From NCBI GenBank assembly GCA_026770705.1, contig JANJGN010000546.1:310001-374000 (forward strand): a stretch of DNA of 64,000 nt. The letters are read 5' to 3'. This stretch comes from Isurus oxyrinchus (taxonomy: Eukaryota). Below, piece by piece: positions 1,167-42,349 of this stretch (positions within the stretch are counted from its first letter, which is position 1; each line of letters opens with the position of its first letter). The notes below the pieces were generated by a model. It saw only the letters and a list, made by a program, of their open reading frames with translations. It made no database searches and was not told where the DNA came from. Both the position numbers and the translations under genes were made by a program.

Positions 1167-1206
1167 ATGGTTGGGAAATCTTACTTCCTCCTGTCACTTC
1201 TCCAAG
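1167..1206 (+). CDS. Gene A leader (signal peptide) exon MVGKSYFLLSLLQ
   Basis: ACAATGG Kozak context, hydrophobic stretch, CAAG|GTAATA phase-1 donor; paralogues at 20625 and 49064; joins the V exon to give LLQ-VGLSQ. Confidence 0.8.
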
Positions 1207-7431: not shown

Positions 7432-7800
7432 TTGGACTGTCACAAGAGTGGAAAGGTGACACTCCACGAGAGGTGACGGCACAGAAAGGTTCGTGTGTAC
7501 AGATTCCATGTAATTACAATTACCCATCACATTTGTTAGAGAAAACACGTGTTGGAATCTGGAAAATGAGAAGGGACAAATGGCATACATCGTCTATAGC
7601 CTTTCACTCCAAGGATCACAGTCACGAGTTACCACGGTTCCACCATCGGACCCGGCTGTCTGGAGACCTGAAAGATGGTGACTGTTCCCTGATTATAAAC
7701 AACATCAGACGGGAAGATGCAGGACCTTATTTTTTCACGATAAAATTTGGCAATGGTCCGAGCCATAACTATTACCCTGTAACCCAGCTTCACGTTTCTG
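7432..7800 (+). CDS. Gene A Siglec-type V-set exon 1 (outer V, YFFT, essential Arg absent)
   Basis: ctctccccag acceptor, TCTG|gtaagt donor, 369 nt phase 1-1; Siglec motifs GSCVQIPC, GDCSLII, DAGPYFF; ACG (Thr) at 7737-7739. Confidence 0.92.
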
Positions 7801-11839: not shown

Positions 11840-12205
11840 CTGAACCCTCACAAGAGTGGAAAGGTGACACTCCACGAGAGGTGACAGCTCAGAAAGGTTC
11901 GTGTGTACAGATTCCATGTCATTACAGTTATCCATTGTGTCTGGAAAACCAACCGCGAGGTGGAGTCTGGTTTAATAATGAGGAATGGAGAACATCGTCT
12001 ATAGCCTTTCACTCCAAGGATCACAGTCATGAGTTACCACGTTTCCACCATCGGACCCGGCTGTCTGGAGACCTGAAAGATGGCGACTGTTCCCTGATTA
12101 TAAACAACATCAGATGGGGAGATGCAGGACCTTATTTTTTCAGAATAGAATTTGACAGCGGAAATAGATACAGCTACTATCCTGTAACCCAGCTTCATGT
12201 TTCTG
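11840..12205 (+). CDS. Gene A V-set exon 2 (inner V, YFFR, extra B-C loop Cys)
   Basis: 366 nt phase 1-1 with canonical splice sites; AGA (Arg) 12142-12144; TGT 11938-11940 in PCHYSYPLC. Confidence 0.92.
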
Positions 12206-12933: not shown

Positions 12934-13230
12934 ATTTCACAGATAAACCCACGATATTCCCTGCTGAAATTATTGCAGGAAAGCGTATGGATGTAAGCTG
13001 CACCTTCAACACAACGTGCAATGGAACAGCAGCACCTGTCTTAACCTGGGACACTCCCACTGACGTACCTGGATCAGTCTCAAACACTGTAACTCAGCAT
13101 GGTGTCACTCTGACCTATACTTCTGTTCTGACCCTGATCCCATCACTCAAACACCACGGACACACTCTCAGCTGCAGAGTGAGATATCCATCTGTTTCAT
13201 CGAAGCAGACCCTCGTACTAACTGTGCAAT
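12934..13230 (+). CDS. Gene A Siglec domain-2-type C2-set exon (C2a)
   Basis: 297 nt phase 1-1; DFTDKPTI...SCTFNTTCNGTAAPVLTW...HHGHTLSCRV resembles CD33-type domain 2, including the interdomain Cys. Confidence 0.92.
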
Positions 13231-13552: not shown

Positions 13553-13705
13553 GACATCTGAATATCACAATGAACAGAACAAGTTCCAACAATGAGCTGT
13601 GGTTGGTGATTCCTTACGTTACATCCGGGGACACTGGAGACTATCAGTGTGTGGCAGAGAATGAACATGGACCAGTGGATGGGCTCATAACCATCACTGT
13701 GGAAC
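13553..13705 (+). pseudogene. 5'-truncated C2b pseudo-exon (gene A)
   Basis: 3' half of C2b (MNRTSSNNELWL...ITITVE|gtgagt); the acceptor and 5' half are replaced by a ~180-bp insert. Confidence 0.8.
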
Positions 13706-15387: not shown

Positions 15388-15669
15388 ACGCTCCACGGAA
15401 TCTCTCAATTACTTCTCCAGATATGATTAACGCTTCATCAATCAGTATAATTGAGTGGAATTCTGCAGTGATAATCTGCTCTGTCGAGAGCTCCCCAGCT
15501 TCTAACCTGATGTGGCGACATCTTAATGTCCCAATGAACAGAACAAGTTCCAACAATGAGCTGTGGTTGGTGATTCCTCATGTTACATCCAGGGACACTG
15601 GAGAATATCAGTGTGTGGCAGAGAATGAACATGGAGCAGTGGAGGGGTTCATAACCATCACTGTGGAAT
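15388..15669 (+). CDS. Gene A C2b Ig exon
   Basis: 282 nt phase 1-1, tttttag acceptor and GAAT|gtgagt donor; (Y)APRNLS...ICSVES.P...W...DTGEYQCVAENEHG. Confidence 0.9.
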
Positions 15670-17373
15670 GTGAGTGTACACAGACTTTAAAATTTCTCTC
15701 ATCTCCGAACACATATACTCAGATGCTCTCCCACACACACACACAAGCACTCACAAATGTACAGACCCAAAGTGCATGCACACACACAATCCCACACTCA
15801 TGAGCACACAGAAAGACACACTCACACACTAACACAGTAGTACACACTCCCCTGTGAGTTACCTGACCTCCCTCAGTACTGCACTGGAGAGTTCTCCTGG
15901 ATTCTGGGATTTGTGTTCCCATTCATATTTATCGAAGAATATCCAAATTACAAAGTCTATTCCAGAAACTCACATGCACAAAGATTCCAACAGATACTCC
16001 CCACCTCTCCGTGTATCTCTCCCCTCCTTTAAGAAGCTTCCTAATCCCTCACTCTTGCCTGTCCTAACTCCTCCTTATAATGCCCTGTGTCAAATTTTTT
16101 GTGTATCTGAGAGAAAGGGAGCGATAAGGAAGTTTAGGAAGGGATTTCCTGTTAGTGAAAAGCTTACTTCATTTTCTCACCTTTCCAGTGTTCAGTTTTG
16201 CCATCATGTCCAATGACCCTATTTATAATGGGGGCATCCTATGTAAACGTCACACTGTCTTTACATCCTCCCACCAGTGGTGGCACTGTGGTGCTTAACC
16301 TTGCACCTCCCAGCTTTTCAGCCAACTTCACTTCACAATTTGCTACACATGCTGTAAGGTCATCAAAATTAACTTATATATCAAATGGTAGATTTGATAA
16401 TACAGTTTATTGAAAGGTTCATCCGCGCTCTGGGAAGGGTTTACACTCTCCAGGAAGCAGGAATAGGCTGGATGTTGGGGAGTTCATCTTTTCCCAGAGA
16501 GTCGGGATCTTCGGGAATGTGCTGTCAGTGGGTGTGGTGGTTGCTGTTTCTCTGTTGCCTTCAAGAGGGATCTGGAGTGGTTACTAACTGGGGGAGAGAT
16601 CATGGAAGCAGAGAATGGTACAGCACAGGAGGAGGCCATTCAGCCCATTGAGCCTGTGCCAGGTCTTTCAATGTTCTATCCAATCAGATCCACTAACCAC
16701 CACTCCACTTTGCCCCCATCTTCTTCCTTCAAGTGTTTATCCAATTTCCCTTTTGAAAGTTCCTATTGAATCTGCTTCCACCGCCCTTTCAGGCAGCACC
16801 TTCCAGATCACAACAACTCGCTCTGTCAAAACAAATTCTCCTCATCTCCCCCTCCAGTTGGTCAATCTGTGTCCCTCTGGTTACCGACCCTCCTGCCCCT
16901 TAAATACATCGATACTGTTCACCTCAACCACTCCCTGTGGGAGTGAGTTCCACATTCTCCCCTCTATCTGGGTAAAGATTGGAACTGTTTATTAAGCGGG
17001 GGGTGTAACTCCGTGGGGGAGTCCATCTCGATCCTGCCCGATTCGCACACACGTCCGAGATGGATTTCCACCCTGCACTAAACGTTTCCAGAATTTTCTA
17101 CAGCACAATCCTGTACACAGCGATGGAGAGAAACATTGGACAGGGAGTCCAACAGCACAATGATCCATTCTCACCAATGTTCCACGCTAAGGGGAAAGTT
17201 CCGATTGTCCACTCTTAGAGTGTTTACAATGAAAACATTCATTCCACATTGAATCCCAGTGGATGGGTCAATATTACAGCAAATGTTGCAGTGATATGAA
17301 GCTTGATTGTTCAGCCAGAGTGAGAGATTGAAAGCGGAGAGTCAGTGATGATTTCTTTCTGTGTGTTCTCTAG

Positions 17374-17513
17374 ACAGTGGAGGAGAGATTCTGCACGTGA
17401 TCCTGATCCTGGGAATACAAGCTGTGATATTCCTTGTGGCTGTGGTTATCACTATCGCTGGAGTCTGTGTCTGGGAGAGACAAACAGTGAAAGGAAGTCG
17501 ACAGACTGTTTGA
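17374..17513 (+). CDS. Gene A terminal TM + short tail exon (YSGGEILHVILILGIQAVIFLVAVVITIAGVCVWERQTVKGSRQTV*)
   Basis: ttctctag acceptor, phase-1 frame (not the frame shown in the ORF track); long hydrophobic span; TGA 17511-17513; Gln (CAA) at 17418-17420. Confidence 0.85.
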
Positions 17514-17634
17514 AGCTTTGTACAGCAACAATCTGGTCAGTCAGTGCGGACAAATAACGTGTGATGTTGGGTTAAGTTGTAATGAAACTGGTCAGTGTCC
17601 TGGTTAGAATCACCTTCGTATCAGAGAGGCATTC

Positions 17635-18245
17635 CAGCACAGTGGGAGCCCATTCAGCCCATTGAGTCCATGCTGCCTCTCTGTAAAGCAATCCAGTCAG
17701 TCCCATTTCCCCCTCTCTATCCCCGTATCTCTGCAAGTTTATTTCCCCTCAAGTGTCCATCCAATTTCCTTTTGAAATCGTTCATCGTCTCCACTTCCAC
17801 CATCCTCGTAGGCAGCGAGTTCCAGCTCATTACCACTCACTGTGTAAAAAAGTTCCTCCTCACATCCCCCCTCTGCCCAAAACCTTCAATCTGTGTCCCC
17901 CAGTCCTTGTACCATCAGCTAATGGCAACAGCTTCTCTTTGTCTGCCTTATCTAAACCCATCATCATCTCTTACACCTCGATCAGATCCCCCCTCAATCT
18001 CCTTTGCTCCAAGGAGAACAACCCCAGCTTCTCCAACCCAACCTTGTAGCTAAAATCCCTCATCCCTGGACCCATTCTGCTCAATCTCCTCCCCATCCTC
18101 TCAAGGACCCTCACTTCCTTCCCAAAGTGAGGAGACCAGAACTGGACACAATACTCTAGTTGTGACCTAACCAGAGCTTTATAAATGTTCAGCATAACCT
18201 CCCTGTGTTTGTTCTCAATCCCTCGATTTATGAAAAGCTTATTCT
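17635..18245 (-). mobile_element. CR1 LINE 3' fragment in gene A 3' region
   Basis: Minus ORF YKALVRSQLEYCVQFWSPH...LFSLEQRRLRGDLIEV. Confidence 0.88.
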
Positions 18246-18591
18246 TTCCATCAGCACAAACAGCAATTTCCAAGCGGACTCCCATCAGCAGACAGAGTGC
18301 AATGAAACATCGGCATGCCTGCTTCTTAATGTACGGAGAGAAACCTGCAACGAGAGATTCTCCTTCTTCTCCTCAGCAAGCTGAAACTTTTCCTTATACC
18401 TGGTGCTCCCCAGTCCTGCTGTGTGGACACATCATAACCACGGCATTGTCTGGCTGTGTGCAGCCAACATGGTCGAATAGGAATGAACAGAAATGTGACG
18501 TTGCTAAACTCTGTTCTCTGATTGGAATGTGCTTTCTGAATGCTGCACCTTTTTCATGCTGCGATAGATTGTAAGAAGCATTTGGGTTATG

Positions 18592-18597
18592 AATAAA
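18592..18597 (+). terminator. Candidate polyadenylation signal, gene A
   Basis: AATAAA conserved at the paralogous position 54350-54355. Confidence 0.45.
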
Positions 18598-18929
18598 ATT
18601 ACATTGATTTCCTCAAGTGATTAAAATGCTCAGCCTTTTCTGTAGATATTTATAGATTAAAATTCTTATTTTGCAACCAAATTTTTGGCTCAAAGACATT
18701 ACTTCATGTTGTCACATATTCTCTATCATATGAATTCCTGTGCCCATCTTTATAATAAAAATTTCCCATGTAAACATGTCACATTGTAGTTGCACACTCC
18801 TGCCAGTGGTGGTGCCATTCCAAAGCTGTCTTGCTGCACCGACACAGTGAGAAATATTCTCGACGTGTACATGATGTTGTTGTTACACGGACATCAGGCG
18901 GAACCTTGGGCAGTGCCTAGAATGCACTT

Positions 18930-20624: not shown

Positions 20625-20664
20625 ATGATCGGGAAATCCTACTTCCTCCTGTCTCTTCTCCAAG
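20625..20664 (+). CDS. Gene B leader exon MIGKSYFLLSLLQ
   Basis: Paralogue of 1167-1206, phase-1 donor CAAG|GTAATA. Confidence 0.8.
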
Positions 20665-21659
20665 GTAATAACATCGTCAGCTCGGACAGGTTTATGGCTA
20701 ATAGTCTTTGTAAAAGATCATTTTTATTGAGCTGTGATTGGGAACCGATTCAGCAGTGAGCCAGTGTACAAACTCACACCAAGTCCCATTCACCCATCAC
20801 CCCTGTGCTCAGTGATATACACTGACTCCCTGTCTGACAGCAGAATTGGAGGAGAGCAGAGATCTCAGAGGGTTTTAGGGTTGGAGGAGGTTACAGGGAT
20901 CGGGAGTGTAGAGGGGGGATGGTGGGGTAAGAAATCGATTATGAGAATTTGAAAATTGAGTCATTGCTGGACTGGGAGCCAGTGTAGTTCAGCCAGTGAC
21001 AGGGGAGCGATCGGCTGAATAGAGAATCAGGGATAAAAACTGGGGAATGAGGTCGATCCCGATGTTAGGACTCGGATAACAATGGCCTGAAATTAGTGTC
21101 TTTTGCTGATTTTGTCAGAATTTCCCATGAAGACAGCACAGCAGCTCCTAGAATAGACAGGCTGTTCAGTGTCACACTTCCTGTCCATTCTCACCTTGCT
21201 AGATACTTCAATAAGGGAGCAAGATAACTGAAAGAGAGAAGGAAGGCAAAGCTGTCTGTGTGTAAAACTGTCAAATATTCTGAGTTATCATGATTGTTTC
21301 TGATCTGCTGCAGAGTTTAAAGTTCTCAGAACATTAGCACTTTGCAGCTCAGAGAGAGACCATTGACTCACTGCCTGAAAGGGCGGTGGAAGCAGATTCA
21401 ACAGGAACTTTCAGAAGGGGAACTGGATAAATACTTGAAGGGGACATTTTGCAGGGCTGTGGAGAAGAGAGCAGAGGTTAGAGTGGGACTAATTGGACAG
21501 ATCTTTCAAAGGCCCAGCACAGGCTCGATGGGCCAAATGGCATCCTTCTGTTCCGGATCATTCTACAATCTGATAAATTAAGCCCCACATCAGTAACTCT
21601 TCAGGCTCCTGCTGCAGGGATGGATCTTTGAGAAGGACAGGGAACAAGAGGTTCCTGGT

Positions 21660-24040
21660 ATCATTTTCATATTTCTTGACAATTATATAAGTGTATAGAT
21701 CTGTTGAATATTTGAGTCTCTAAAGCGTAGAGGTAATCTGCTGTTATATCGAGATCTTGTGGTGGCAAAATTGTCTGGAGGTTTCTTTAATTGCTCACAT
21801 TGATCTGTGGGATTGTCATTCTTCGATGTTGTCCCTGGTTTCAATTGACATTACACCCTTGATGCAACTGAGGAGGCTTTAAACTAATATGGCAGGGGAT
21901 GGGATCCCGAGAGGAGGTTCAACAGAGAGAGATGCACGGCCAAAATTAGAAGAGAGAGCAAATGAAACTGGAAGGCATAGAAATTATTGACCATTTAAGG
22001 CTCAAGATAGTGTGGCAAAGTTGGATTGTATTAATTTTAATGCAAGGAGTCTGACAGACTTGCATTCTCCTGCAGGTGTAATGTTGCAGCTCCCTTGAAC
22101 CTGCCAATATTGTTGAATCTGTCTGCATATTTCAATGTTATGTCATGAACTGAGCTGATGGGATAGTTTCTGAGACTGGGACAGACATAAATCCATTGGC
22201 TTTCGGCCGGACTGGACAATCATGGAAGTGGGTGGGGCCAGAAAATCCCACCCCTATGGGAACATTTTCAGTTAATTTGATGTGCCCAGAGAGATCAATA
22301 AAGACCACAATCCACAATTTATTGACAAGCCACGTCAGGATATGTGTGAGAGGTGGAATATCGATCACCGCTCCTAGTCTCGTCGTGTACATCATCGCCA
22401 TTTCCTGGTTTGTCAGTCACCACATGTATATGTTCCTGATGGGATAGCGGATGGTCATTCTTATTGCTTGAAGGTTCCCCGTTGTGCAGGGTTTGTTTGG
22501 ATCAGCGCACGGCTCTTTGTAGCTGCATCAGCCTTTGCTCTAGTGCCCTGCCGCTGTCAATGGCCCTTTCTGCCACAAGCCTTGATGGATTGGTGGAAAG
22601 CTGGGCATTTCCTTGGTGTCCGCAGAAGGCCACACCTTCCACACGACTCACTAGGTTTGGATGTTCTAGTGAGTGTGCCAACAATTGATGTTGTACTGAG
22701 GACCTATAAGCTTCGTTGACCTGCGAGGATCACTTCGTATTTATGTCCATCCTAGAGTAACTCTTCAATGCTATAGGTTTTGGTCTTATCTAGCAGATCT
22801 TTCTGGAAGGCTTCCATGGGAGTGGATGCGATCACCAACTCAACAACTGTGTCTGCAGGCTCTGTGTTTGAAATCACAGTGCGTACCCTTTTCTCTACAT
22901 CGGCTGATGAAGTGGTCTATGGATTGTGTAGGCTGATGAAATGACATAAACTCTAGTTGATGAATATGGAGTTTCACCTGATTCTGAACCTGTCTTCCAA
23001 TGTCGTCCATATCTATTGGGGATCCTTTCGCTCTTCTGCTGTTAATCCTGACGTGTTCAGCCTGTGTAGACCTTCATTCCCAATCGCGAGGTGAATTTTT
23101 ATGGGTGGTTCGTCTGGTTCAGTCACACCTGAATCAGGAAACCAGAGCTCTGTACGCTGTTTAAACATTCTGAATTCAGATAGTCGGTCAGCTACATCCC
23201 AGTTCAAACTGGGGAATTTCGTGGACATTCTGACAATATTCCTTTGACGTTCCTTCTTCTACAGGACCCGGGATGAGTGTCGCTTTAGCCCCTTTTGTGC
23301 GCTTTTCTGAAGCTCCGCCCACGGAGACGGGTTGTGGCAGGAACACACCACGGAGTAATGGAGTCTTTGTTTTTTATTCAATTTGCTGTTCATCAATCTC
23401 AAAGCCGCCCGTTATAATCACTAACTTCTCTGGGCTGATTTTTATAATGGTTTTTGTGTGTTTGAATCTCCCTCGCTCACTATCGATCCAGCCCACACCC
23501 TGGTCACTCGCCTTCCCTGACTGAGCTAACCCGCTGCTGGTCCTGGCAATACACACTGTCCCACTCACTGACCTACAGGCCGTGTGCTGTAATCTCACCA
23601 CGAGGGATCCGTCTGCTCCCCAGCTCTTTACTTGAGCTCTTTCCCATCACTGTGTCTTCAAAGGTTTCCTGAGCAGTCAGTACACTGCGATTTCAACCCT
23701 CTCTGATGCTGTGTCTCTGTTGTGGTCTGACCAAAGCGTCGAGGGTCGTCTCATGTCATGTAGCTCGATCTCAGGCTGTTCACCATGTCATACCTGTACT
23801 GAATCTTGCTGCCAGAATGTTTGGCCACCGCTGATCACCATGTTGTGTTTTTATAATGATATAAAGGCACCAGCCACTGATACGGAATTGGGTAAATACA
23901 TTGTGGGTTGAGTTATTTAGAACAGGGACATGAGAACAGATATACAAGGATAGAAAGCTGGGAGACACCTGCGGCCAAACTGTGTGAGCTGTGTTCTGCT
24001 CACAGGCCAAAGTGAAACTTGGACTGGATGGTGTTATCAT
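21660..24040 (-). mobile_element. Same Gypsy insertion as in gene A, with different internal deletions
   Basis: 22190-22800 matches 4440-5040 and 23595-24040 matches 5045-5490; retains gag-like MSTKFPSLNWDVADRLSEFRMFKQR (23013-23228), which A lacks. Confidence 0.7.
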
Positions 24041-25056
24041 CCCAGCTGATGTTACTACTGGGCAAGTCAGATCCCAGGGTGGAACTCAGCTTGATAGGTC
24101 CTAACTTTTATTTTTTATTTAGGAATGTGGAGTGCGGCTACTGAACAGAGTCACAGGAGTCATCTGATGATCTTCTAACAAAAGAATAAAACATTTATTA
24201 AACTAGGAAAGACAAACTATATTACATTACACCTTCACCCAGATCTATACCTTTGCAGATTCATAAGTAGAACACAAGTTACAATAACTATCTTATATTC
24301 TCATGTTCACACTAAGTGCACAGTCGATATAAACCAATAGACGACCTGTGGTCAGGGACACCACATTCTGAAAGAAACTGACAGAACCCACTTGAAACAA
24401 ATGCCAAGTCTCCCTCCTCATCTGACCCCAGACGCTTGTTACACTGTGAGACAACCAGTCTCACTGACTCTCCAAGAACTCGCTTTGGAATCTTCTCCAA
24501 CATGACACATTCACTCAGACACCTTCCACAAGGGTCCACTTTCACTATTTCAAACTCTCCTTCCCATGTTCCTGCCCCCTGGATCGCCACGTGCATTCAG
24601 CCTTCCTTCCACGCCCTGTCTCTCCAATGCTCAGCCGTGTCAATGGAACACCATGGCTTCACATGGCCGTAGTAATGAGTCACCAACCTGTGGTGTCTCC
24701 TAGGATCTTCTGGCTTCTCACAAGCCTATTTTGATTTAGGCAAAACAAAATCAGCAAGTTAACCCAATGCCCCGGACAGTGGAATTCCAAATGCATTGTC
24801 CCCAACTTCAGTTCTGTTGGAGAGCAGGCTTGTGCACAAACAGGGTCCTGAGGACCATGAACCAATGTAGAATGAACTTTTCCGCTTTTGTGTCCAGGAT
24901 TCTCTTCCATCTGGTGTGATACCTTGTGGAGTTCATTGTGTGTCCTGTAGATGGTCCACACTGCAGCCACTGTGCCCGAGTGATGGAGGGGGTGGATAAT
25001 GAGTCTTGTGGATCAACAAAACATCCAGAGTTAAATATTGATATTTCTCTCCCCAG

Positions 25057-25434
25057 TTGGATTGTCACAAGAGTGGAAAGGTGACACTCCACGAGAGGTG
25101 ACAGCGCAGAAAGGTTCGTGTGTACAGATTCCATGTCATTACAGTTATCCATCAGATTTGGTAAAGAAACCACATGTCGGAATCTGGAAAATGAGAAGCT
25201 ACATACGGAACAAATGGTCTAAATGGTCTACAGCCTTTCACTCCAAGGATCACAGTCACGAGTTACCACGGTTCCGCCATCGGACCCGGCTGTCTGGAGA
25301 CCTGAAAGATGGCGACTGTTCCCTGGTTATAAACAACATCAGACGGGAAGATGCAGGACCTTATTTTTTCACGATAAAATTTGGCAATCGTCCGAGCCAT
25401 AACTATTACCCTGTAACCCAGCTTCAGGTTTCTG
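25057..25434 (+). CDS. Gene B V-set exon 1 (outer V, YFFT)
   Basis: 378 nt phase 1-1; ACG at 25371-25373; begins VGLSQEW. Confidence 0.92.
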
Positions 25435-25669
25435 GTAAGTGCTGTGTTATAATTACTCAACAATTCACATCCAACACTCAATGGGAAATAATAGTGTTTG
25501 ATTTGCTTGTTTTTTGGCCATGTTAACCAGCGTCACTATTTTTAATGATTTGTCTATTTCTGCTCCCAGATCCATGAGCTTATTGTGTGTGATTGAATCC
25601 ACATCATAGCTGTAATGTAAACCGAGCTGAGGGGTGATGACACCTCCCCCCTGAGTGAAGTGTCTCCTC

Positions 25670-28575
25670 CCCACTACACCTTCCACCCCTTACACTGTCT
25701 GTGTAAACCCCCGTCCCATCTCCAGCCTCTCTTTCCTCTCCAAAGTCCTTGAACGTGTTTCCATCTCCCGAATCCGTTCCCATCTTTCCCGGATCTCCAT
25801 GTTTGAATCCCTCCAATCAGGTTCCCACCCCAGCCACTGTGCTGAAACAGCTCCTATCAAGGTCACAAATGGCATCCTGTGTGACTGTGACAAAGGTCAA
25901 CTTTCCCTCCTCGTCCTTCTCGATCTGTCTGCAGCCTTTGACACGCTCGACCACACCATCCTCCTCCAACACCTCTCCACTGTCGTCCAGCTGGGTGGGA
26001 CTGCTCTCCCCTGGCTCCATTCTTATCCATCTCATCGTAGCCAGAGAATCACTTGCAATGGTTTTGCAGCATCATCTGAACAGTTTTAGTTTTCACCTGT
26101 CCACTGAGGATGCCCAGCTCTACCTCACCACCACCTCTCTCGACTCCTCCACTGCTGCTAAATTATCAGGCTGCTTATCCGACATCCAGTACTGGATGGG
26201 CAGAAATTCCCTCCAATTAAATATTGGAAAGACTGAAGCCATTGTCTTCATTCCCCGCTCCAAACTCTGTTCCCTCGCTACCAACTCCATTCCTCTCCCT
26301 GGCAGCTCTCTGAGATTGAAGCCAATCTGTTCACAGCTTTGTTGTCCCATTTGATCCTGAGATGAGCTTCCGGCCTCATATCTGCGCCCTCACTAACACC
26401 GTCTATTTCCACCTCCGTAACATTGTACGACGTCACCCTGTCTCAGCTCATCTGCTGCTGAAACCCTCATCCACGCCTTCATTACCTCCAGACTCGACTG
26501 TTCCAACACACGCTCTACACTCCATAAACTTGAGGCCATCCAAAACTGCTGACCACGTCCTTACTCACACCAAGTCCCGAGACTGGTTCCTGGTCAAGCA
26601 AAGTCTCAATGTCACAATTTTTGAATATTTTTCCTCCCTATTACAGTAATCTCCTCCTCTTCCTTCATCCACGGCAACATTCCCTATCTCAGGAGTCTCC
26701 TCCTGTCCCTACAACCCTCCCTATCTCAGGAGCCTCCTCCAGTCCCTACAACCCTCCCTATCTCAGGAGTCTCCTCCTGTCCCTACAACCCTCCCTATCT
26801 CAGGAGCCTCTTCCAGTCCCTACAACCCTCCCTATCTCAGGAGCCTCCTCCAGTCCCTACAACCCTCCCTATCTCAGGAGCCTCCTCCAGTCCCTACAAC
26901 CTTCCCTATCTCAGGAGACTCCTCCAGTCTCTACAACCCTCCTATCTCAGTACCTTCTTCCAATCCCGAAAACCATTCCTATCACTGCAAACTCCTCCGG
27001 ACCCAACACCCCTCCCTATCTCTTTAACCTCCTCAAGCCCCGATAACCCTCGCGATATTTGTAGCCTCCTTGAGTCCTAACAACCTCCCCTATCTCTGCA
27101 ACCTCCTCCAGACCGAATACCTCTCCCTATCTCTGTAAGCTGCTCCATCTCTTACAACCCTTCATATTTCTGTAACCTCATCCAGCCCACTACAACCCTC
27201 CCTATCTCTGTAACCTCCTCCAGTCCTTAAAAGCTTCCATTATCTCTGTAACCTCCTCCAGCCATTATAACCCTCCCTATCTGTAGCCTCCCTCAGCCCC
27301 AGCCACACTCCATATCTATGTAACCTCGTCCTGCCCCTACAACCCTCCCTATCTCTGTAACCCCATCCTGCCCCAAAAACTCCCCCATCTCTGTAAACTC
27401 CTCCAGTCCCTGCAACCTTCCCTACCTCTGAAACCTCCACCAGCCTTTCCAACCCTCCCTACCTCTGCAATCCGTCCAGCCCCTACAACTCTTCCTATCC
27501 CTGTAAACTCCTCCTGCCCCTAAAACCCTCTCTGCTCTTGCAGCCTCCTCCAGTCCCTACACGCTCCCCATCTCCATAAACTCCTCAAGTCCCTACAGCC
27601 CTCCCTATCTCTGCAACCTCCTCCAGGTCCTACCACCCTCCCTATCTGCGTAACCTCCTCCAGCATCTACAGCCCTCCCTATCTCTGTTACCTCCTCCAG
27701 CCCCCACAAACCTCCCTATCTGTGTAACCTCCTCCAGCCCCTGATGGAAGGTGGGTCGAGCGGGTCAGTCACTTGCATGTTTATTCTGCAGCTTTAATAT
27801 TTTAAGATGGTAAGAATGTAGGAACATAAGAAATAGGGACAGGAGCAGGCCATTCGGCCCCTCACTGATCTGGTTGTAGCCTTAACTCCATTTTCCTGCC
27901 TGTCCCCCAAACCCTTGACTCCCTTGTCGATCAAAAACCTGCCTCACTCAGCCTTGAGTCTATTCAATGGCCCAGCCTCCACTGCTCTCTGGGGAAGAGA
28001 ATTCCACAGGCTAGCGCCCCTCTGAGAGAGGAAATTCCTCCTCATCTCAGTCTTAAATGGGAGAGCACTCATTCCGAAACTGTGCTCCCTGGTTCTAGAT
28101 TCCCCCACGAGGGGGAAACATCCTCCCAGTATCCACCCTGTCAAGCCCCCTCGGAATCGGATATGTTTCAATAAGGTCACCCCTCATTCTTCTAAACTCC
28201 AATGGATACAGGCCCAACCTGCTCAACATTTACTCACAGGACAAACCCTTTAATCCCAGGAATCAGCCCAGTGAACCTCCTCTGGACTGCGTTCAATGCA
28301 ACTCTATCCCTCCATAAGTAAGGAGACCAGAACTGTACACACTGCTCCTGATACAATCTCACCCTGTGCAGCTGTTGCAAGACTTCCCTCCTTTTATACT
28401 CCATCCCTTTGCAATAAAGGCCAACATTCCACTTGCCTTCCTCATTCCGTGGTGTTCCTGAATGCTGACTTTCTGTGATTCATGTACAAGGACACCCAGA
28501 TCCCTCTGTACTGCATTCTGCATCCTGTCTCCATTTAAATAATATCCTGTTTTTCTATTCTTCCTGCCAAAATAA
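25670..28575. mobile_element. Intron block: L2 fragment (+), 37-bp minisatellite, CR1 fragment (-)
   Basis: Paralogous to 8040-11735. Confidence 0.85.
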
Positions 28576-28691
28576 TTTGTTGCCATTCTCCTCAGTATTG
28601 ACCATCCCCCCAATTCAGCCTCATCAGTAAATTTTGAGTCTAGTGGATCCACAAACCATCCAGAGTTAAATATTGATATTTCTCTCCCCAG

Positions 28692-29060
28692 CTGAACCCT
28701 CACAAGAGTGGAAAGGCGACACTCCACGAGAGGTGACAGCGCAGGAAGGTTCGTGTGTACAGATTCCATGTCATTACAGTTATCCATCGTGTCTGGAAAA
28801 CCAAACGCGAGGTGGAGTCTGGTTTAATAATGAGAAAGAGATTCCCTGGGCTCCCATTGCCTTTCACTCCAAGGATCACAGTCACGAGTTACCACGGTTC
28901 CACCATCGGACCCGGCTGTCTGGAGACCTGAAAGATGGCGACTGTTCCCTGATTATAAACAACATCAGACAGGAAGATGCAGGACCTTATTTTTTCAGGA
29001 TAGAATTTGACAATGGTCCGAGACATAACTATTACCCTGTAACCCAGCTTCACGTTTCTG
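28692..29060 (+). CDS. Gene B V-set exon 2 (inner V, YFFR, extra Cys)
   Basis: 369 nt phase 1-1; AGG 28997-28999; TGT 28790-28792. Confidence 0.9.
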
Positions 29061-29299
29061 GTAAGTGCTGTGTTATAATTACTCAACAATTCACATTCAA
29101 CACTCAATGGGAAATAATAGTGTTTGATTTGCTTGTTTTTTGGCCGTGTTAACCAGCGTCACTATTTTTAATGATTTGTCTATTTCTGCTCCCAGATCCA
29201 TGAGCTTATTGTGTGTGATTGAATCCACATCATAGCTGTAACGTAAACCGAGCTGAGGGGTGATGACACCTCCCCCCTGAGTGAAGTGTCTCCTCCCCA

Positions 29300-32130
29300 C
29301 TACACCTTCCACCCCTCACACTGTCCGTGTAAACCCCCGTCCCATCTCCAGCCTCTCTTTCCCCTCCAAAGTCCTTGAACGTGTTTCCATCTCCCGAATC
29401 CGGTTCCATCTTTCCCGGAACTCCATGTTTGAATCCCTCCAATCAGGTTCCCACCCCAGCCACTGTGCTGAAACAGCTCTTATCAAGGTCACAAATGGCA
29501 TCCTGTGTGACTGTGACAAAGGTCAACTTTCCCTCCTCCTCCTTCTCGATCTGTCTGCAGCCTTTGACACGCTCGACCACACCATCCTCCTCCAACACCT
29601 GTCCACTGTCGTCCAGCTGGGTGGGACTGCTCTCCCCTGGCTCCATTCTTATCCATCTCATCGTAGCCAGAGAATCACTTGCAATGGCTTTGCAGCATCA
29701 TCTGAACAGTGTTAGTTTTCACCTGTCCACTGAGGATCCCCAGCTCTACCTCACCACCACCTCTCTCGACTCCTCCACTGCTGCTAAATTATCAGGCTGC
29801 TTATCCGACATCCAGTACTGGATGGGCAGAAATTCCCTCCAATTAAATATTGGAAAGACTGAAGCCATTGTCTTCATTCCCCGCTCCAAACTCTGTTCCC
29901 TCGCTACCAACTCCATTCCTCTCCCTGGCAGCTCTCTGAGATTGAAGCCAATCTGTTCACAGCTTTGTTGTCCCATTTGATCCTGAGATGAGCTTCCGGC
30001 CTCATATCTGCGCCCTCACTAACACCGTCTATTTCCACCTCCATAACGTCGTACGACTTCACCCTGTCTCAGCTCATCTGCTGCTGAAACCCTCATCCAC
30101 GCCTTCATTACCTCCAGACTCGACTGTTCCAACACATGCTCTACACTCCATAAACTTGAGGCCATCCAAAACTGCTGACCACGTCCTTACTCACACCAAG
30201 TCCCGTTCCCTTATCACCCGCTCTGCTCGATGACCGAGACTGGCTCCTGGTCAAGCAAAGTCTCAATGTCCAAATTTTTGAATATTTTTCCTCCCTATTA
30301 CAGTAATCTCCTCCTTTATCTTCATCCACGGCAACATTCCCTATCTCAGGAGCCTCCTCCAGTCCCTACAACCCTCTCTATCTCAGGAGCCTCCTCCAGT
30401 CCCTACAACCCTCCCTATCTCAGGAGCCTCCTCCAGTCCCTACAACCCTCCCTATCTCAGGAGACTCCTCCAGTCCCTACAACCCTCCTATCTCAGTACT
30501 CTCTTCCAATCCCGAAAACCATTCCTATCACTGCAAACTCCTCCGGACCCAACACCCCTCCCTATCTCTTTAACCTCCTCAAGCCCCGATAACCCTCGCG
30601 ATATATGTAGCCTCCTCCAGTCCTAACAACCTCCCCTATCTCTGCAACCTCCTCCAGACCGAATACCTCTCCCTATCTCTGTAAGCTGGTCCATCTCTTA
30701 CAACCCTTCATATTTCTGTAACCTCCTCCAGCCCACTACAACCCTCCCTATCTCTGTAACCTCCTCCAGTCCCTAAGAGTTTCCTTTATCTCTGTAACCT
30801 CCTCCAGCCATTATAACCCTCCCTAACTCTGTAGCCTCCCTCAGCCCCAGCCACACTCCATATCTATGTAACCTCGTCCTGCCCTTACAACCCTCCCTAT
30901 CTCTGTAACCCCATCCTGCCCCAAAAACTCCCCCATCTCTGTAAATCCTCCAGTCCCTGCAACCTTCCCTACCTCTGAAACCTCCACCAGCCTTTCCAAC
31001 CCTCCCTACCTCTGCAATCCGTCCAGCCCCTACAACTCTTCCTATCCCTGTAAACTCCTCCTGCCCCTAAAACCCTCTCTGCCCTTGCAGCCTCCTCCAG
31101 TCCCTACGCGCTCCCCATCTCCATAAACTCCTCAAATCCCTACAGCCCTCCCTATCTCTGCAACCTCCTCCAGGTCCTACCACCCTCCCTATCTGCGTAA
31201 CCTCCTCCAGCATCTACAGCCCTCCCTATCTCTGTTACCTCCTCCAGCCCCCACAAACCTCCCTATCTGTGTAACCTCCTCCAGCCCCTGATGGAAGGTG
31301 GGTCGAGCGGGTCAGTCACTTGCATGTTTATTCTGCAGCTTTAATATTTTAAGAAGGTAAGAATGTAGGAACATAAGAAATAGGGACAGGAGCAGGCCAT
31401 TCGGCCCCTCGAGCCTGCTCTCACTGATCTGGTTGTGGCCTTAACTCCATTTTCCTGCCTGTCCCCCAAACCCTTGACTCCCTTGTCGATCAAAAACCTG
31501 CCTCACTCAGCCTTGAGTCTATTCAATGGCCCAGCCTCCACTGCTCTCTGGGGAAGAGAATTCCACAGGCTAGCGCCCCTCTGAGAGAGGAAATTCCTCC
31601 TCATCTCAGTCTTAAATGGGAGAGCCCTCATTCCGAAACTGTGCTCCCTGGTTCTAGATTCCCCCACGAGGGGGAAACATCCTCCCAGTATCCACCCTGT
31701 CAAGCCCCCTCGGAATCGGATATGTTTCAATAAGGTCACCCCTCATTCTTCTAAACTCCAATGGATACAGGCCCAACCTGCTCAACATTTACTCACAGGA
31801 CAAACCCTTTAATCCCAGGTATCAGCCCAGTGAAGCTTCTCTGAACTGCCTTCAATGCAACTCTATCCCTCCATAAGTAAGGAGACCAGAACTGTACACA
31901 CTGCTCCTGATACAATCTCACCCTGTGCAGCTGTTGCAAGACTTCCCTCCTTTTAGACTCCATCCCTTTGCAATAAAGGCCAACATTCCACTTGCCTTCC
32001 TCATTCCGTGGTGATCCTGAATGCTGACTTTCTGTGATTCATGTACAAGGACACCCAGATCCCTCTGTACTGCATTCTGCAGCCTGTCTCCATTTAAATA
32101 ATATCCTGTTTTTCTATTCTTCCTGCCAAA
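29300..32130. mobile_element. Duplicated intron block: L2, minisatellite, CR1
   Basis: Near-identical to 25670-28575. Confidence 0.85.
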
Positions 32131-32250
32131 ATAATTTGTTGCCATTCTCCTCAGTATTGACCATCCCCCCAATTCAGCCTCATCTGTAAATTTTGAGTCT
32201 AGTGGATCCACAAACCATCCAGAGTTAAATATTGAGATTTCTCTCCCCAG

Positions 32251-32619
32251 ATAAACCCTCACAAGAGTGGAAAGGTGACAGTCCACGAGAGGTGACAGCG
32301 CAGGAAGGTTCGTGTGTACAGATTCCATGTCATTACAGTTATCCATCGTGTCTGGAAAACCAACCGCGAGGTGGAGTCTGGTTTAATAATGAGAAACAGA
32401 TTCCCTGGGCTCCCATTGCCTTTCACTCCAAGGATCACAGTCACGAGTTACCACGGTTCCACCATCGGACCCGGCTGTCTGGAGACCTGAAAGATGGCGA
32501 CTGTTCCCTGATTATAAACAACATCAGACGGGAAGATGAAGGACCTTATTTTTTCAGAATAGAATTTGACAATGGTCCGAGCCATAACTATTACCCTGTT
32601 ACCCAGCTTCACGTTTCTG
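32251..32619 (+). CDS. Gene B V-set exon 3 (inner V, YFFR, extra Cys)
   Basis: 369 nt phase 1-1; AGA 32556-32558; TGT 32349-32351. Confidence 0.9.
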
Positions 32620-33431
32620 GTAAGTGCTGTGTTATAATTACTCAACAATTCACATCCAACACTCAATGGGAAATAACACAAACTGTGACGTTTACATATT
32701 AACACAAAACACAGCTTATTATAACACACTGTCTGATTCTCAATAACCTGCTAATAGCTTCCAGTTCAGTCCTAAAACAACCTCTAATACCACTTTAATA
32801 TCAATGATTAAATGTATTGACTGTGTCCATCAATGTTATCAGGTTATCCACTTACATCAATCTCCCTAATCCTGTTTAAAACTTTTACATATCAACAAAA
32901 GAAAGATTTGCATTTCTATAGCACCTTTCACCACCTCTGGACGTCGCAAATGGATTCACAACCATTGAAATAATTCTTGAAATGTAGCCCTTGTTGTAAT
33001 CTGGGAAACACAGCAGCCAATTTGTGCACAGGAAGCTCCCAGAAACAGCAATGTGATCAATAACCTGATCGTCTGCTTTAGATGCCGGTTCAGTGATTGG
33101 TTCAAATGGATTCTCTCCTGCTGGGATCTGGATAGAATTTAAATCTGGCAGATTTCGGAGAAAGTAACAAGCCAGTGTGTCAGGAACTGTGAGCTGATCC
33201 CCCACCCTCACCCGGGATTGTCAATTCAATTGTCTCAAAGTGGAAGTGAATTCATCTGAGTGACAGAAACTCCACTAAGTCTGAAAATAGGAAATTCTCT
33301 CCTGATCATTGTAATCTCTCAGTTCTGATATCATCCTTGTAAAAGTGCTTTCTCTTGTGGGACTGTGATTTCTATTTGAACTGATGCTTCACGTTATATT
33401 TCTCTAAAAGGATCCATTCTCTGTGTGTTAG

Positions 33432-33728
33432 ATTTCACAGATAAACCCATGATATTCCCTGCTGAAATTATTGCAGGAAAGCGTGTGGATGTAAGCTGCA
33501 CCTTCAACACAACGTGCAATGGAACAGCAGCACCTGTCTTAACCTGGGACACTCCCACTGACGTACCTGGATCAGTCTCAAACACTGTAACTCAACATGG
33601 TGTCACTCTGACCTATACTTCTGTTCTGACCCTGATCCCATCACTCAAACACCACGGACACACTCTCAGCTGCAGAGTGAGATATCCATCTGTTTCATCG
33701 GAGCGGACCCTTGTACTAACTGTACAAG
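33432..33728 (+). CDS. Gene B C2a exon
   Basis: 297 nt phase 1-1, almost identical to 12934-13230. Confidence 0.92.
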
Positions 33729-34099
33729 GTAAGTACTGACACCCTTGATTCTATATTAGCTGTAATAGGATACAATGTGCAGAGCAAGATCCCACAAACA
33801 TCACTGGGTTGAAGACAAAACAGGTCCTTTTTTATTAGTGATATTGACCAGGGAGAGCTCTTCCTGTATTGAGCCTTGGGATTGTTTATGCCTACCTGAT
33901 AAGGCAGAGGGGGCCAAGGTTGAACTTAAAAGACAATATAGGATAATATAAATATTGTCTTCATTGATGTCAAAGATTTTGGGGGAGATGTAGTATAAAA
34001 GTTTAATATTAACAATGTAAATAGATAGTATTTATCATCAGTTACTCAAGGTCACATGAGAATAGAACACGGAGAGAGATAGTTCTATAGATACCTAGG

Positions 34100-36150
34100 T
34101 ACATAGAAACTAGGAGCAGGATTAGGACATTCAGCCCTTCAAGCCTTCTCCGCCATTCAATATGATCAAGGCTGACCCTCTATCTCAAAGCCTTATTCCC
34201 GCTTTCTCTCCGTACCCTTTGATGCCCCTAATATCAAAATATTTATCAGTTTCTTTCTTGAATACACTCAGTGACCCGGCCTCCACAGCCTCTGTGATGG
34301 AGAATTCCACAGATTGACCACCCTCTGAGTGAAGAAATGTTTCCCTATCTCAGTCCAAAATGGCCTGCCCTGTATCCTGAGATTGTCGCCCTTGGTTTTA
34401 GACTCCCCAACCAAGGGATGCATCCTCCCTCCATCCAGTCTGTCTATCTCTGTTAGAATTTCTTACGTTTATTCAGGTCTCCTCTCATTCTTCTAAACTC
34501 TAGTGAATACAGACCCAGTCGTACCAATTCTCCTCATACGACAGTCCTGCCGCCCCTGGTATCAGCCTAGAGAACCTTCTCTGCGCTCTCTCGACAGCAA
34601 GTCTATCCTTTTTTAGGGAGGGAGAGCAAATCGGCACGTAGTATCCCATGTGCAGTCTCACCAAGACCTTGTATAACTGCAGTAAGACATCCCTACTCCT
34701 GAACACAAATCCTCTTGCAATGAAGGCCAACATACCATTTGCCTTCCGAATTACTTGCTGCACCTGCCTGTTTACTTTCATTGGCTAGTGCACAAGGACA
34801 CCCAGATCCCTTTGTACATCCACATTTCCCATTATATCACCATTTAAATAATACTCTGCCTTTCTGTTTTTCACACCAAAGCCTACAATGTCACATTCAT
34901 CCACATCATCTGCCATGTGTTTGCCCACACACACAACATGTCTAAATCGCCTTGAAGCCTCTTTGCATCCTCCTCACAGCTCACACCCTTACCCAGCGTT
35001 GTGTCATCAGAAAACCTGGAAATATTGCACTTGGCTCCCTCACCCAAGTCATTTATATATATCGTGAATAGTTAGGTCCCAAGCACGGATCCCTGTGGTA
35101 TACCACTAGTTAACGCCTGCCACTCAGATAAAGACTAATTTATTCTGACCCTCTGTTTCCTGTCTATCGACCAATTCTCAATCCATGCCAGTAAATTACC
35201 CGCAATCCCATGGGCTTTAATGTTGCGCACTAGCCTCACGTAGGACCTTATCAAAAGCCTTCTTGAAATCTAAATACACCACATCCACTGGTTATCCCTT
35301 ATCTATTCTACTCGTTACATCTTCAAAATCTCCAATAGATTAGTTAACCATGATTTTCCTTTCATTAACCCATGCTGATTTTGTCGAATCCCATTAATGC
35401 TTTCCAAGCGTTCCGTTAGCACACCTTATATAATAGGCTCTAGCGTTTTCCCCATGTTAGACTAACTGATCTGTAATTCCCAGTTTTTTTCTCTCCCTTC
35501 TATTTTAAATAGTGGGGTTACAATTGCCACCCTCCAATCTATAGGAACTGCTCCAGAGCCTATAGGATTTTGGAGGATGACCACCAGTGCTTCCAATATT
35601 TCCAGGGTCACTTCCGTTAGTCTCTGGGATGTAGATTTTCAGGCCCTGGGGACTGTTCAACCTTTAACCCATTAATCTCTCCAGATTCATTTTTTAAAAC
35701 TAATCCTGATTATCTTCAATTCGTCCCTCTCACTAGACACTTGGTTCCCTAACATTCCTGGGAAATTATTTGTGTCCTCTTTTGTGAAGACAGAACCAAA
35801 ATATATGTTCAGTTCTTCTGCCATTTCTTTGTTTCTCATTAGAATTTCCCCCATTTCTGACTGCAAGGAACCTACATCGGTCACTGCTAATCTTTCTCTC
35901 TTCACATATTTATAGAAGCTTTTACAGTCGGTTTTTACGTTCCCTGCAAGTTTACTCCCATGTTCCATTTTCCCCTTCTTGATCAATCTTTTTGTCCACT
36001 TTTGCTGAATTCTAAACTGCTCCCAATCCTCAGCATTGCTGCTTCCCCTGGCAATTTTATGTCTCCTCTCTGGATCTAATACTATCCCTAATTTCTTTTG
36101 TAAGCCCTGGTTGAGCACCATTTCCTGATTTATTTTTACGCCAGACAGAA
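34100..36150 (-). mobile_element. CR1 LINE ORF2 remnant (~2 kb)
   Basis: Minus ORFs KTDCKSFYKYVKR...EMAEELNIYFGSVFTKED and KANGMLAFIARG...LQLYKVLVR. Confidence 0.88.
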
Positions 36151-36284
36151 ATGGATAATTGTTGTAGCAAATGCTTCAGCCTTATCTTTTGCCCTGATGT
36201 GCTGGGCTCCCCCTTCATTGAGGATGGGGATATTTGTGGATTCCCCTCCTCCAGTGAGCTAATTGTCCGTTACCATTGGATACG

Positions 36285-37260
36285 AGCATTAGTGGACTGT
36301 GTTAGACCATTATCGAAAATGAAAGCCGGACTCCAGTATGGCCTCACTATGATGGATATGACAACTCGATTTCCAGAGACCATCCCTTTAGGAACAATTA
36401 CAGCTAAAGTAGTATTAGGGAAGTTAACCCAATTTTTTACCCATTATGGATTACCGCTGGAGATCCAGTCAGATCAAGGTTCCATCTCTATGTCTTAAAA
36501 TTTTCCGAACATAATGAGTAATTTGGGTATAAAACAGTTAAAGTCCACAGCATATCATCCATAGACACAGGGATCTTTAGAGAGGGACCAACAAACCCTC
36601 AAAACAATGATTGAAGCTATTGTCATGAACTCCCCATGACTGGGACAAAGGACTGGATTTTCTTGTATTTCCCACACGAGATTCACCAACTGAATCGGCA
36701 GGTTTTAGTCTTTTTGGAATAACTTATGGACACGAGATAAGAGGCTGTCTGAAATACATCAAAGAAAGATATTCCGGACAGAGGGATTTCAGATGATGTG
36801 TCCACGTTTCAGGAACGGCTCATGGGAGCCTCCAAAGTGGCACAAGAACATCTTATAGTTTCTCAAACAGAGATGAAGGAATGGGGCAGACAGGCAAGCT
36901 GTGACCCGAACATCACAACCAGGGGGATGACGTGTTAGTATCATTGCCTTGGCAGGGGGAGCCTCTGAAAGCGCGGTTCAGTGGTCCCCACAAGGTAATT
37001 AGGAGTGTTGGTCAAGTAAATTAATTGATAGACACCCCAGATTGTAGAATAAAGAATCGGCTGTGACACATCAATATGTTAAAACGATACCATCGTAGGG
37101 AGGGAGGTAAAAAGGAGCAGGTATTTCATTTCTAACCAGATTCTGCATAGATTACAGAAAGGTTAATGCAGCAATAAAACCAGATTCCTACCCAATCCCC
37201 TGTTTAGAAGATGGTATTGACGAGGTTGGCAGTGCCATGTTCCTTACTGAGATAAATTTG
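36285..37260 (+). mobile_element. Gypsy pol fragment with integrase upstream of RT (Gmr1-like order)
   Basis: Integrase DMTTRFPETIPL...YGLPLEIQSDQGS followed at ~37141 by RT N-terminus FCIDYRKVNAAIKPDSYPIP. Confidence 0.75.
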
Positions 37261-37262
37261 TT

Positions 37263-37298
37263 GGTAGTGGGGGGTGTTCGTGACCATCAGTGTGGAAG
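37263..37298 (+). pseudogene. Remnant 3' end of a C2b exon (gene B)
   Basis: GTAGTGGGGGGTGTTCGTGACCATCAGTGTGGAAG resembles the C2b exon end GCAGTGGAGGGGTTCATAACCATCACTGTGGAA and is followed by the CA tract that follows C2b exons. Confidence 0.55.
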
Positions 37299-37451
37299 GG
37301 TTAGGTTTACAGGTTACACAGACCAGACACACACCAACAGACACACACACACATGTAAGCACGCACATTCACACGCACACGTGCACACACACAACACACA
37401 CACGCACACACACACACACGCACATACGCACACACACGTAAGCACGCACAT

Positions 37452-37579
37452 NNNNNNNNNNNNNNNNNNNNNNNNNNNNNNNNNNNNNNNNNNNNNNNNN
37501 NNNNNNNNNNNNNNNNNNNNNNNNNNNNNNNNNNNNNNNNNNNNNNNNNNNNNNNNNNNNNNNNNNNNNNNNNNNNNNN
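37452..37579. other. Assembly gap (128 N) inside a CA-rich microsatellite
   Basis: Run of N flanked by (CA)n-like sequence. Confidence 0.99.
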
Positions 37580-38091
37580 GTGCAGAAACACAAACACACA
37601 CATACACACACACAAACACACTCACTTGTGCAGAAACACAAACACACACACATACACACATGTGAGCTCCCTCTCCTCACTCAGTGCTGCACTGGAGTCT
37701 CGGTGTCAGCTCCGATTCTGTGTTGAAGGAAGGTAAACTCCAGATCAACAAGACCCTGAATTGGATGAGCAACCTCCTGAACAGAGAATTGTAGATTTAC
37801 CCCTCAGTGCTCCATCAATCAAATACAATTCATTGCCTGTCAAGCCCTTGGGGACATTCTGAGGATGTGAAAGGCAGTTTCTTTAAATCTGGATGGGCAG
37901 GGTCTCTGGTGGGAGAATGCTCCTGCAGTGTGACAGTTTACATAGGCAGTGCCCATTGTAAATGTGACATAGGAACTTATCTTGAGAGAAGGTGCCTAGA
38001 AATGCACACAGGCATCAGTTACAGTGAGATGATACAGGAAGTTTTGCTGTGCACTGTGATTGCTCACATTAAAATCTTTATATATTTTTAG

Positions 38092-38373
38092 ATGGACCAC
38101 AGAATCTCTCAATTACTTCTCTTGATGTGATTAACGCTTCATCGGTCAATATAATTGAGGAGAATTCTGCAGTGATAATCTGCTCTGTCGAGAGCTTCCC
38201 AGCTTCTAATCTGACGTGGCGACATCTTAATGTCCCAATGAACAGAACAAGATCCAACAATGAGCTGTGGTTGGTGATTCCTCACGTTACATCCAGGGAC
38301 ACTGGAGACTATCAGTGTGTGGCAGAGAATGAACATGGAGCAGTGGAGGGGTTCATAACCATCACTGTGGAAT
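38092..38373 (+). CDS. Gene B C2b exon 1
   Basis: 282 nt phase 1-1, open, canonical AG/GT. Confidence 0.9.
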
Positions 38374-39505
38374 GTGAGTTAAAGCAAACTTCAACATCAC
38401 TCTCACATATTCACACACACACACATACACATACACACATGCATACAAACAAGCATTCATGTGCAATCCCACATGTGCACAGGTGTGCACGCCTGTATGC
38501 TCACACACAGAAGCATACATACAGAATCACACGTGTGCTTGCTCACACACACACAGACATGTGTGAGTTGTCTGTTCTCCCTGTGCTGCACTGGAGTGTT
38601 GCTCCAGATTCTGCTCTGAAACACTGACGACATCAGCTGAACAAGACCCTGTATTGGACGAGCAGCCCCCTGCACAGAGAATTGTAGGTTTATCACTCAA
38701 TACCCCATTATTCTAAAGCAATTCCTCCACTGTCAAATCCCTGTGAACATCCTGATGATGTGAAAGACATTTTCTTTTCTTCTAGCCTGACAGTGTCTCC
38801 TCTGGTGGAAGGCTGTAATTACAGCGTGACAGTTTACATATCCACACGCAGCAAGAGCTGAGCAACACTCAGCTTGGGCTGAGAAATGACAAGTAACGTT
38901 CACACCACACAAGCACCAGGCAGTGATCATGTCCAACAAGAGAGAATCTAACCATCTCCCCTTGATATTCATTGAATTTACCATCACTGAATCTCCCACG
39001 ATCAACATCCTGGGGGATGTTAACCAAACACCGAACTGGACTGGCCATAAATACTGTGGCTACAGGGGCAGGTCAGAGGCTGGGGAGTCTGTGGGGGGGA
39101 ATAACTCACCACCACCTTCTATAAGACCATAAGACATAGGAGGAGAAATTAGGCCATTCAGCCTATCGAGTCTGCTCCACCATTCAATCATGGTTGATAA
39201 GTTTCTCAACCCCATTCTCCAGCCTTCTCCCCATAACCTTTGATCCCCTTACCTATCAAGAATCTATCTATCTCGGTCGTAAATACACTTCACCAGGGCA
39301 ATTAGGGATGGGCAATAAATGCTGGCCTAACCAGCGACACCCACTTCCTTTGAATGTACAGATAGAAAAATACATGCAGTGACCATCATTAATGTTGACA
39401 TAGGAACTTATAATGGGGAAGATACTTTGGAATGCACATGGACACCAGAAAGAGAGAGACGAAGCATTGAGTCTTCCTCACAATGAAATCTTTATTTGTT
39501 TTTAG

Positions 39506-39787
39506 ATACACCACGGAATCTCTCAATTACTTCTCTTGATATGATTAACGCTTCATCGATCAATATAATTGAGGGGAATTCTGCAGTGATAAACTGCTCT
39601 GTCGAGAGCTTCCCAGCTTCTAACCTGATGTGGCGACATCTTAATGTCCCAATGAACAGAACAAGTTCCAACAATGAGCTGTGGTTGGTGATTCCTCACG
39701 TTACATCCAGGGACACTGGAGATTATCAGTGTGTGGCAGAGAATGAACAAGGGGCAGTGGAGGGGTTCATAACCATCACTGTGGAAC
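39506..39787 (+). CDS. Gene B C2b exon 2
   Basis: 282 nt phase 1-1, open. Confidence 0.9.
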
Positions 39788-39813
39788 GTGAGTTACTGTA
39801 AACTTCAACATCA

Positions 39814-39854
<41 letters not shown>

Positions 39855-41039: not shown

Positions 41040-41074
41040 GTGAGTTAAAGCAAACTTCAACATCACTCACATAC

Positions 41075-41111
<37 letters not shown>

Positions 41112-42318: not shown

Positions 42319-42349
42319 GTGAGTTACACAGAGTTGAACGTTCTCTTGT

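Follow-up and report, generated by a model that had tools for sequence, protein, structure and literature searches.

The 64-kb stretch of DNA analysed here (the window) is a shark CD33-like Siglec cluster of three genes, A, B and C, all on the + strand (Table 1). Gene A has a V-V-C-C architecture with a short tail, in which a leader exon is followed by two V-type domains (V1 and V2), the first C-type domain (C1), a truncated relic of a C2 exon, an intact C2 exon and a membrane exon. Six of these exons are intact and flanked by canonical splice sites, and their joined frame stays open for 497 codons. The ectodomain of gene A is thus as whole as the initial annotation had described it, yet V1 lacks the "essential" arginine of Siglec V domains. 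The second, intact C2 exon was either gained or kept by gene A, and no white-shark model with the membrane arginine has one. In both genes A and C a stop codon lies 12 residues past the membrane segment, and the tail contains neither a tyrosine nor an ITIM.

Table 1. Features of the Siglec-like cluster, in positions of the window.
Feature	Positions	Strand	Remark
Gene A leader exon	1167..1206	+	Start identical to white-shark gene models
Gene A V1 exon, Siglec-type V-set	7432..7800	+	Thr replaces essential Arg
Gene A V2 exon, Siglec-type V-set	11840..12205	+	Essential Arg kept; Siglec-5 match E 1e-13
Gene A C1 exon (first C-type Ig)	12934..13230	+	
Gene A 5'-truncated C2 exon relic	13553..13705	+	Without acceptor, presumably skipped
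Gene A intact C2 exon	15388..15669	+	
Tract of A/C similarity	16475..18670	+	~97% identical to 52236-54430; flanks 80-87% identity
Gene A last coding exon: membrane segment, short tyrosine-free tail, stop	17374..17513	+	Acceptor position supported by joint in related run and white-shark proteins
Gln codon CAA, gene A membrane segment	17418..17420	+	Derived state; Arg in 24/24 homologues
Gene B, inhibitory-type partner	20625..45858	+	Leader, three V, one C1, four C2, membrane exon, three cytoplasmic exons
Gene C leader	49064..49102	+	One base shorter than A and B leaders; stop at codon 34 from homologous ATG
Gene C V exon relic, 33 bases of 3' end	49794..49826	+	Acceptor and most of exon deleted
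Gene C intact C1 exon	50684..50980	+	
Gene C 5'-truncated C2 relic	51304..51456	+	Same breakpoint as A relic
Gene C membrane and tail exon with Arg	53135..53274	+	
Arg codon CGA, gene C membrane segment	53179..53181	+	Ancestral state, CpG site

The assignment to a Siglec-like family, made in the initial annotation, is supported by V2 of gene A, for which the best 18 matches among solved structures are all Siglecs, sialoadhesin or MAG (including Siglec-5 and CD33). The cysteines of V2 align with the Siglec cysteine pattern of Siglec-5, the domain matches Pfam V-set and Ig_CD22, and C2-set domains follow the V domains, as in the Siglec family. The essential F-strand arginine of Siglec V domains is present in V2 of gene A and in V4 and V5 of gene B. 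It is replaced by threonine in the outermost V domain of both gene A and gene B (25057-25434), and is found in 81 of 83 motif matches in homologues. The F-strand position of this residue and the ITIM consensus are used in their usual sense, and the former agrees with the Siglec-5 alignment. Sialic-acid binding is a predicted property.

Gene B has an open frame of 994 codons. Its membrane exon (43577-43673) encodes an uncharged segment, and the three cytoplasmic exons that follow carry tyrosine motifs, the tail terminating in an S-x-Y-x-x-L motif. Exon by exon, the ectodomain of gene A has 91-97% DNA identity with its closest counterpart in gene B (V1 to V3, 93.8%; V2 to V4, 91.0%; C1 to C1, 97.3%). 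V4 (28692-29060) and V5 (32251-32619) of gene B are 97% identical and lie within a recent duplication of ~3.6 kb, which made this a three-V Siglec-like gene. A 128-base gap of Ns (37452-37579) falls inside CA repeats in an intron of gene B, so that its exon count could be incomplete. Copies of its first cytoplasmic exon stand just upstream of every leader in the window (636-716, 20097-20174 and 48530-48613) and mark the edges of the duplication units. A hydropathy scan had given only two membrane segments in the window, and gene B was considered to have no membrane exon of its own and to splice to the arginine exon of gene C, yielding an intact activating receptor. This was dropped as the main reading once homologues revealed the uncharged exon and the three tail exons of gene B, although splicing from B to C could still happen as an occasional event.

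Gene C has lost its V domains, as had been noted before: only 33 bases of a V exon are left, without an acceptor, and to this are added a 1-base deletion in the leader and a truncated C2. With this damage, gene C is probably a pseudogene. An upstream ATG at 49042 is brought into frame by the leader deletion, whereas the matching ATG of gene B is out of frame and gene A has none. From it, a V-less protein of 165 residues with an odd N-terminus is predicted. If this ATG is used, the V-less isoform of human CD33, CD33m, may serve as a model, although CD33m is an exon-skipped product of an intact gene and bears an inhibitory tail, while gene C has its deletion in the genome itself, together with a frameshifted leader and an arginine-bearing membrane segment. 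The truncated C2 relic of gene C has a breakpoint identical to that of the relic in gene A. It seems to be old, since a contig from a related organism (organism B) joins such a relic, with a 1-base deletion, to the membrane exon.

The membrane exons of genes A and C are 140 bases each and differ at a single base, A at 17419 in gene A and G at 53180 in gene C. The codon difference that drew attention to this locus, glutamine (CAA) against arginine (CGA) through a CpG-type transition, is thus real in the assembly and is the sole mismatch in the exon. The exon lies within a longer tract in which genes A and C differ at 58 of 2,195 aligned bases. CpG transitions account for 11 of these 58 differences, and CpG sites in the tract have changed ~5.5 times as often as other sites. 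With ~97% identity inside and 80-87% outside, the tract is likely the product of gene conversion between A-type and C-type copies. From the tract, ~3.9 differences would be expected in the exon, compared to the one observed (P ~0.10). A lone difference in the exon would land in the arginine codon ~7% of the time by chance, so its position is not by itself above chance and gives no strong sign of selection.

Homologues were collected as a set of 112 proteins, from word-index searches, cluster look-ups and a full scan of representatives, and 24 of these contain the membrane segment, as found with a pattern that fixed the flanking residues and left the residue at the Arg/Gln site free. The census leaves out P0110, whose frame is a repeat lacking the motif, and P0094, a ray protein whose arginine sits in a distant membrane segment (E 0.024). 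Searching by region with the catshark exon yielded no further protein. All 24 homologous segments, from eight shark species in three orders, have arginine at the site, and none has glutamine. Carcharodon carcharias accounts for 12 of these proteins, Scyliorhinus canicula for 2, and S. torazame and Chiloscyllium punctatum for 3 each, with one each from C. plagiosum, Hemiscyllium ocellatum, Rhincodon typus and Mustelus asterias. The same exon also ends CD22-like and SLAM-like proteins (P0106, P0107, P0109, P0111 and P0112) in bamboo, epaulette, cat and smooth-hound sharks. This arginine exon would be one putative activating module common to these receptor families.

Eight of 24 listed sequencing runs of related organisms were also compared with the window, and four of them (three samples of organism A and one of organism B) cover site 17419. 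The base is G in all contig depth of all four. Together with the arginine in 24 of 24 homologues, this makes glutamine the derived state. The outgroup comparison that had been set as a test of direction thus returns arginine as the ancestral and constrained state, and glutamine as the product of a CpG transition. The glutamine codon itself is absent from the four runs, whose contigs, possibly of other species, also miss other letters private to the window. Contigs drop rare variants, and the best run contained 63% of the words, so the runs are a poor gauge of polymorphism. Run X1, for example, lacks letters private to gene C and one letter common to genes A and C, which means that the runs are not from the assembled individual or that rare copies were dropped. 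Where the runs differ from gene C, gene A agrees with them at 15 of 21 tested sites (the 21 being part of the 25 rows shown in the tract, four from one contig end being unscored and 152 further rows standing outside the comparison). This suggests that gene C has drifted more, and that the glutamine of gene A is recent.

The same runs bear on whether assembly or polishing wrongly introduced the A at 17419, in a multi-copy region of 97-99% identity. No protein or run carries this base, and one contig is identical to gene A over 301 bases except there. An error is nevertheless improbable, as the change is of the commonest natural type in the tract and the runs that lack it also miss the C-private letters and the letter shared by A and C. 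Runs presumed to be RNA contain C1 joined to the membrane exon (29 letters on the short side of the joint, plus a loose end), so splicing of copies with the arginine seems to occur in a related organism. The joints seen are of this C1-to-membrane form rather than the C2 form of gene A, and no transcript specific to gene A was found in the runs. The depth of run X2 at the exon is ~2,200-2,400, beside variants at 18, 522 and 613, which hints at several copies, depth being no measure of copy number. The raw reads of run X21 gave CA repeats only.

The best explanation of these observations, which we hold with about even confidence, is that gene A is an activating-type gene whose ancestral membrane arginine was replaced by glutamine, that its product has likely lost adaptor pairing and would bind without signalling, and that it is one damaged copy in a family in which other copies likely keep the arginine. 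One may ask instead whether gene A is a dying copy that makes little or no folded protein, with the glutamine as a neutral passenger. The C2 exon of gene A has four private amino-acid changes, one of them at a site that is phenylalanine or leucine in 33 of 33 homologue matches, and its C1 exon has two, so that the protein may be impaired. The loss of the essential arginine from V1, the threefold breakage of the neighbouring gene C and the ~7% chance of a lone change reaching the arginine codon fit a dying copy as well. Against this stand the intact leader, the six exons with all splice sites, and the 497-codon frame. The four C2 copies of gene B have one to four private non-synonymous changes each, so gene A is not an outlier, and the V1 arginine loss is common to V3 of gene B. 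The counts of private changes are too few to reveal any relaxed selection in the C1 and C2 exons. On balance, we consider a dying gene A unlikely.

Reading gene A as a charge-loss copy, the question becomes how much of the activating arm is affected. The initial annotation had the arm disabled on this haplotype by two independent losses. This cannot be extended beyond the two copies in the 64 kb at most, as the white shark has ~10 gene models (12 proteins, isoforms merged) with V, C1 and the arginine exon on six contigs, some of which may be haplotype duplicates. These models, named automatically as "sialic acid-binding Ig-like lectin 7/12/13" and "CD33-like" (for example XP_041037236.1 and XP_041037190.1), have the same leader, V, C1 and membrane exons as gene A, with 89-93% identity in the membrane exon, but all 12 proteins have arginine and none has the extra C2. 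With so many arginine copies in a close relative, damage to two genes is not enough to silence the arm. Other white-shark models are truncated, and in one copy (P0011) an aspartate stands mid membrane segment, besides the arginine, where five valines are normal (Val to Asp), as expected for birth-and-death evolution. We infer that the losses in genes A and C are routine birth-and-death events and not a selected shut-down; gene A is likely a charge-loss copy in a paired-receptor family of this kind, and the finding looks like ordinary gene turnover rather than the loss of a whole activating arm.

The locus resembles the primate Siglec-5/-14 and Siglec-11/-16 pairs, where adjacent inhibitory and activating-type genes have similar ectodomains, signs of conversion and damaged activating copies (PMC4042635, PMC5701461, PMC6288428). 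The activating members of these pairs have a basic membrane residue and a short tail, as does the shark activating type. Measured against Siglec-14 and Siglec-16, gene A has the short tail and the neighbouring inhibitory gene but not the basic residue, while gene C has the arginine but no V domain. The likeness to human null alleles of activating Siglecs that the initial annotation had proposed is borne out to this extent, with the difference that the human nulls delete the gene (the SIGLEC14/5 fusion, PMC4042635) or frameshift it (SIGLEC16P, a 4-base deletion, PMC5701461) and leave no membrane protein, whereas gene A has a point change in a full frame. The human nulls also segregate at high frequency (PMC6288428), while the shark glutamine is known from one haplotype. 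The shark family is multi-copy with tandem V domains, and the likeness does not imply orthology to the primate genes.

From this likeness comes the view, held in the initial annotation, that the glutamine allele segregates under selection as a null or decoy, dampening activation by competition for ligand. The sole change in the exon strikes a residue that is invariant in 24 of 24 homologues, in a gene with an intact frame whose V exons share 91-94% identity with those of the inhibitory gene B, and human nulls of this kind are reported as frequent (PMC6288428, PMC5701461, PMC4042635). On the other side, the many arginine copies in a close relative would buffer such a loss, and no glutamine is seen in the four runs, a weak point, since further letters private to the window are absent from their contigs as well. 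A selected null is, in our estimation, distinctly unlikely; a decoy function for gene A, which would require both expression and selection, is possible.

Returning to gene A as a copy that has lost its charge, the proposed mechanism begins with the CpG transition, which replaced the ancestral membrane arginine by glutamine. Based on mammalian receptors, this arginine is expected to pair with the two aspartates of an ITAM adaptor, and glutamine, based on mammalian mutants, likely breaks the pairing. If gene A is expressed and its product reaches the surface without an adaptor, the result would be a surface receptor predicted to bind ligand but not to signal. Receptor-adaptor assembly rests on a single basic residue, and even arginine to lysine cuts assembly of FcalphaRI with Fcgamma; passages of the same source contain no arginine-to-glutamine experiment (PMC1440944). 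In mouse CD33, surface expression requires DAP12, and the K252A mutant is described as highly expressed without the DAP12 limit and with phagocytosis not suppressed (PMC6890642). The likeness is that removal of a Siglec membrane charge frees surface expression from the adaptor, which makes a non-signalling surface form of gene A plausible by analogy. The mouse change is engineered, from lysine to alanine, and concerns DAP12, while that of gene A is natural, from arginine to glutamine, with a putative adaptor.

As to the adaptor, an FcR-gamma-like partner seems more likely than DAP12. An arginine at the outer end of the helix goes with Fcgamma and a central lysine with DAP12 (PMC1440944), and both FcalphaRI and KIR2DL4, whose ectodomain family differs from that of the shark genes, have an arginine near the outer side of the helix with a long stretch of uncharged residues after it, as appears to be the case here (PMC1440944, PMC1318474). 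Position -5 from the shark arginine is polar (Gln or His) in 13 of 24 homologues, suggesting that the arginine is at about residue 5 and favouring an outer position with an FcR-gamma-like partner. The best hydropathy windows place it at 7-8. As the arginine can be residue 5 or 8 depending on where the helix starts, DAP12, which human Siglec-14 is reported to use (PMC4042635, PMC13358205), may still be the partner.

It is also conceivable that signalling persists in the glutamine form, or that this form has taken on a new role, through self-association or residual weak adaptor binding. One Gln, Asn, Asp or Glu residue can be enough for model membrane helices to form dimers or trimers, and some Fcgamma-coupled receptors have no basic residue, according to a source that also describes assembly as highly sensitive to the basic head group (PMC1440944). 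KIR2DL4 is reported to induce cytokine signalling without its membrane arginine, by way of its tail (PMC1318474), but a tail of this type is absent from gene A. No natural glutamine occurs among the 24 homologues and the gene A tail has no motif, and we give signalling by the glutamine form a low probability. Less probable still is that the CGA codon acts as a reversible switch, with CpG decay giving an adaptor-free decoy (CAA) or a secreted form (TGA), conversion from a dead C-like neighbour restoring arginine, and glutamine segregating under pathogen pressure. If this were true, a cartilaginous fish would have an equivalent of the human SIGLEC14 and SIGLEC16 nulls that arose by point mutation and keeps its full length.

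No paper on the membrane residues of shark Siglecs was found in the open literature, as covered by listings and the opening parts of abstracts. The weight of the finding is modest, as it concerns one change on one assembled haplotype in a multi-copy family. If the base is real and gene A is expressed, the gene would provide a natural one-residue test of the coupling between a shark Siglec and its adaptor, and would suggest that activating paired Siglecs have been lost repeatedly beyond the primates. A better-supported by-product is the invariant arginine exon itself, which is common to Siglec-, CD22-like and SLAM-like receptors across three shark orders.
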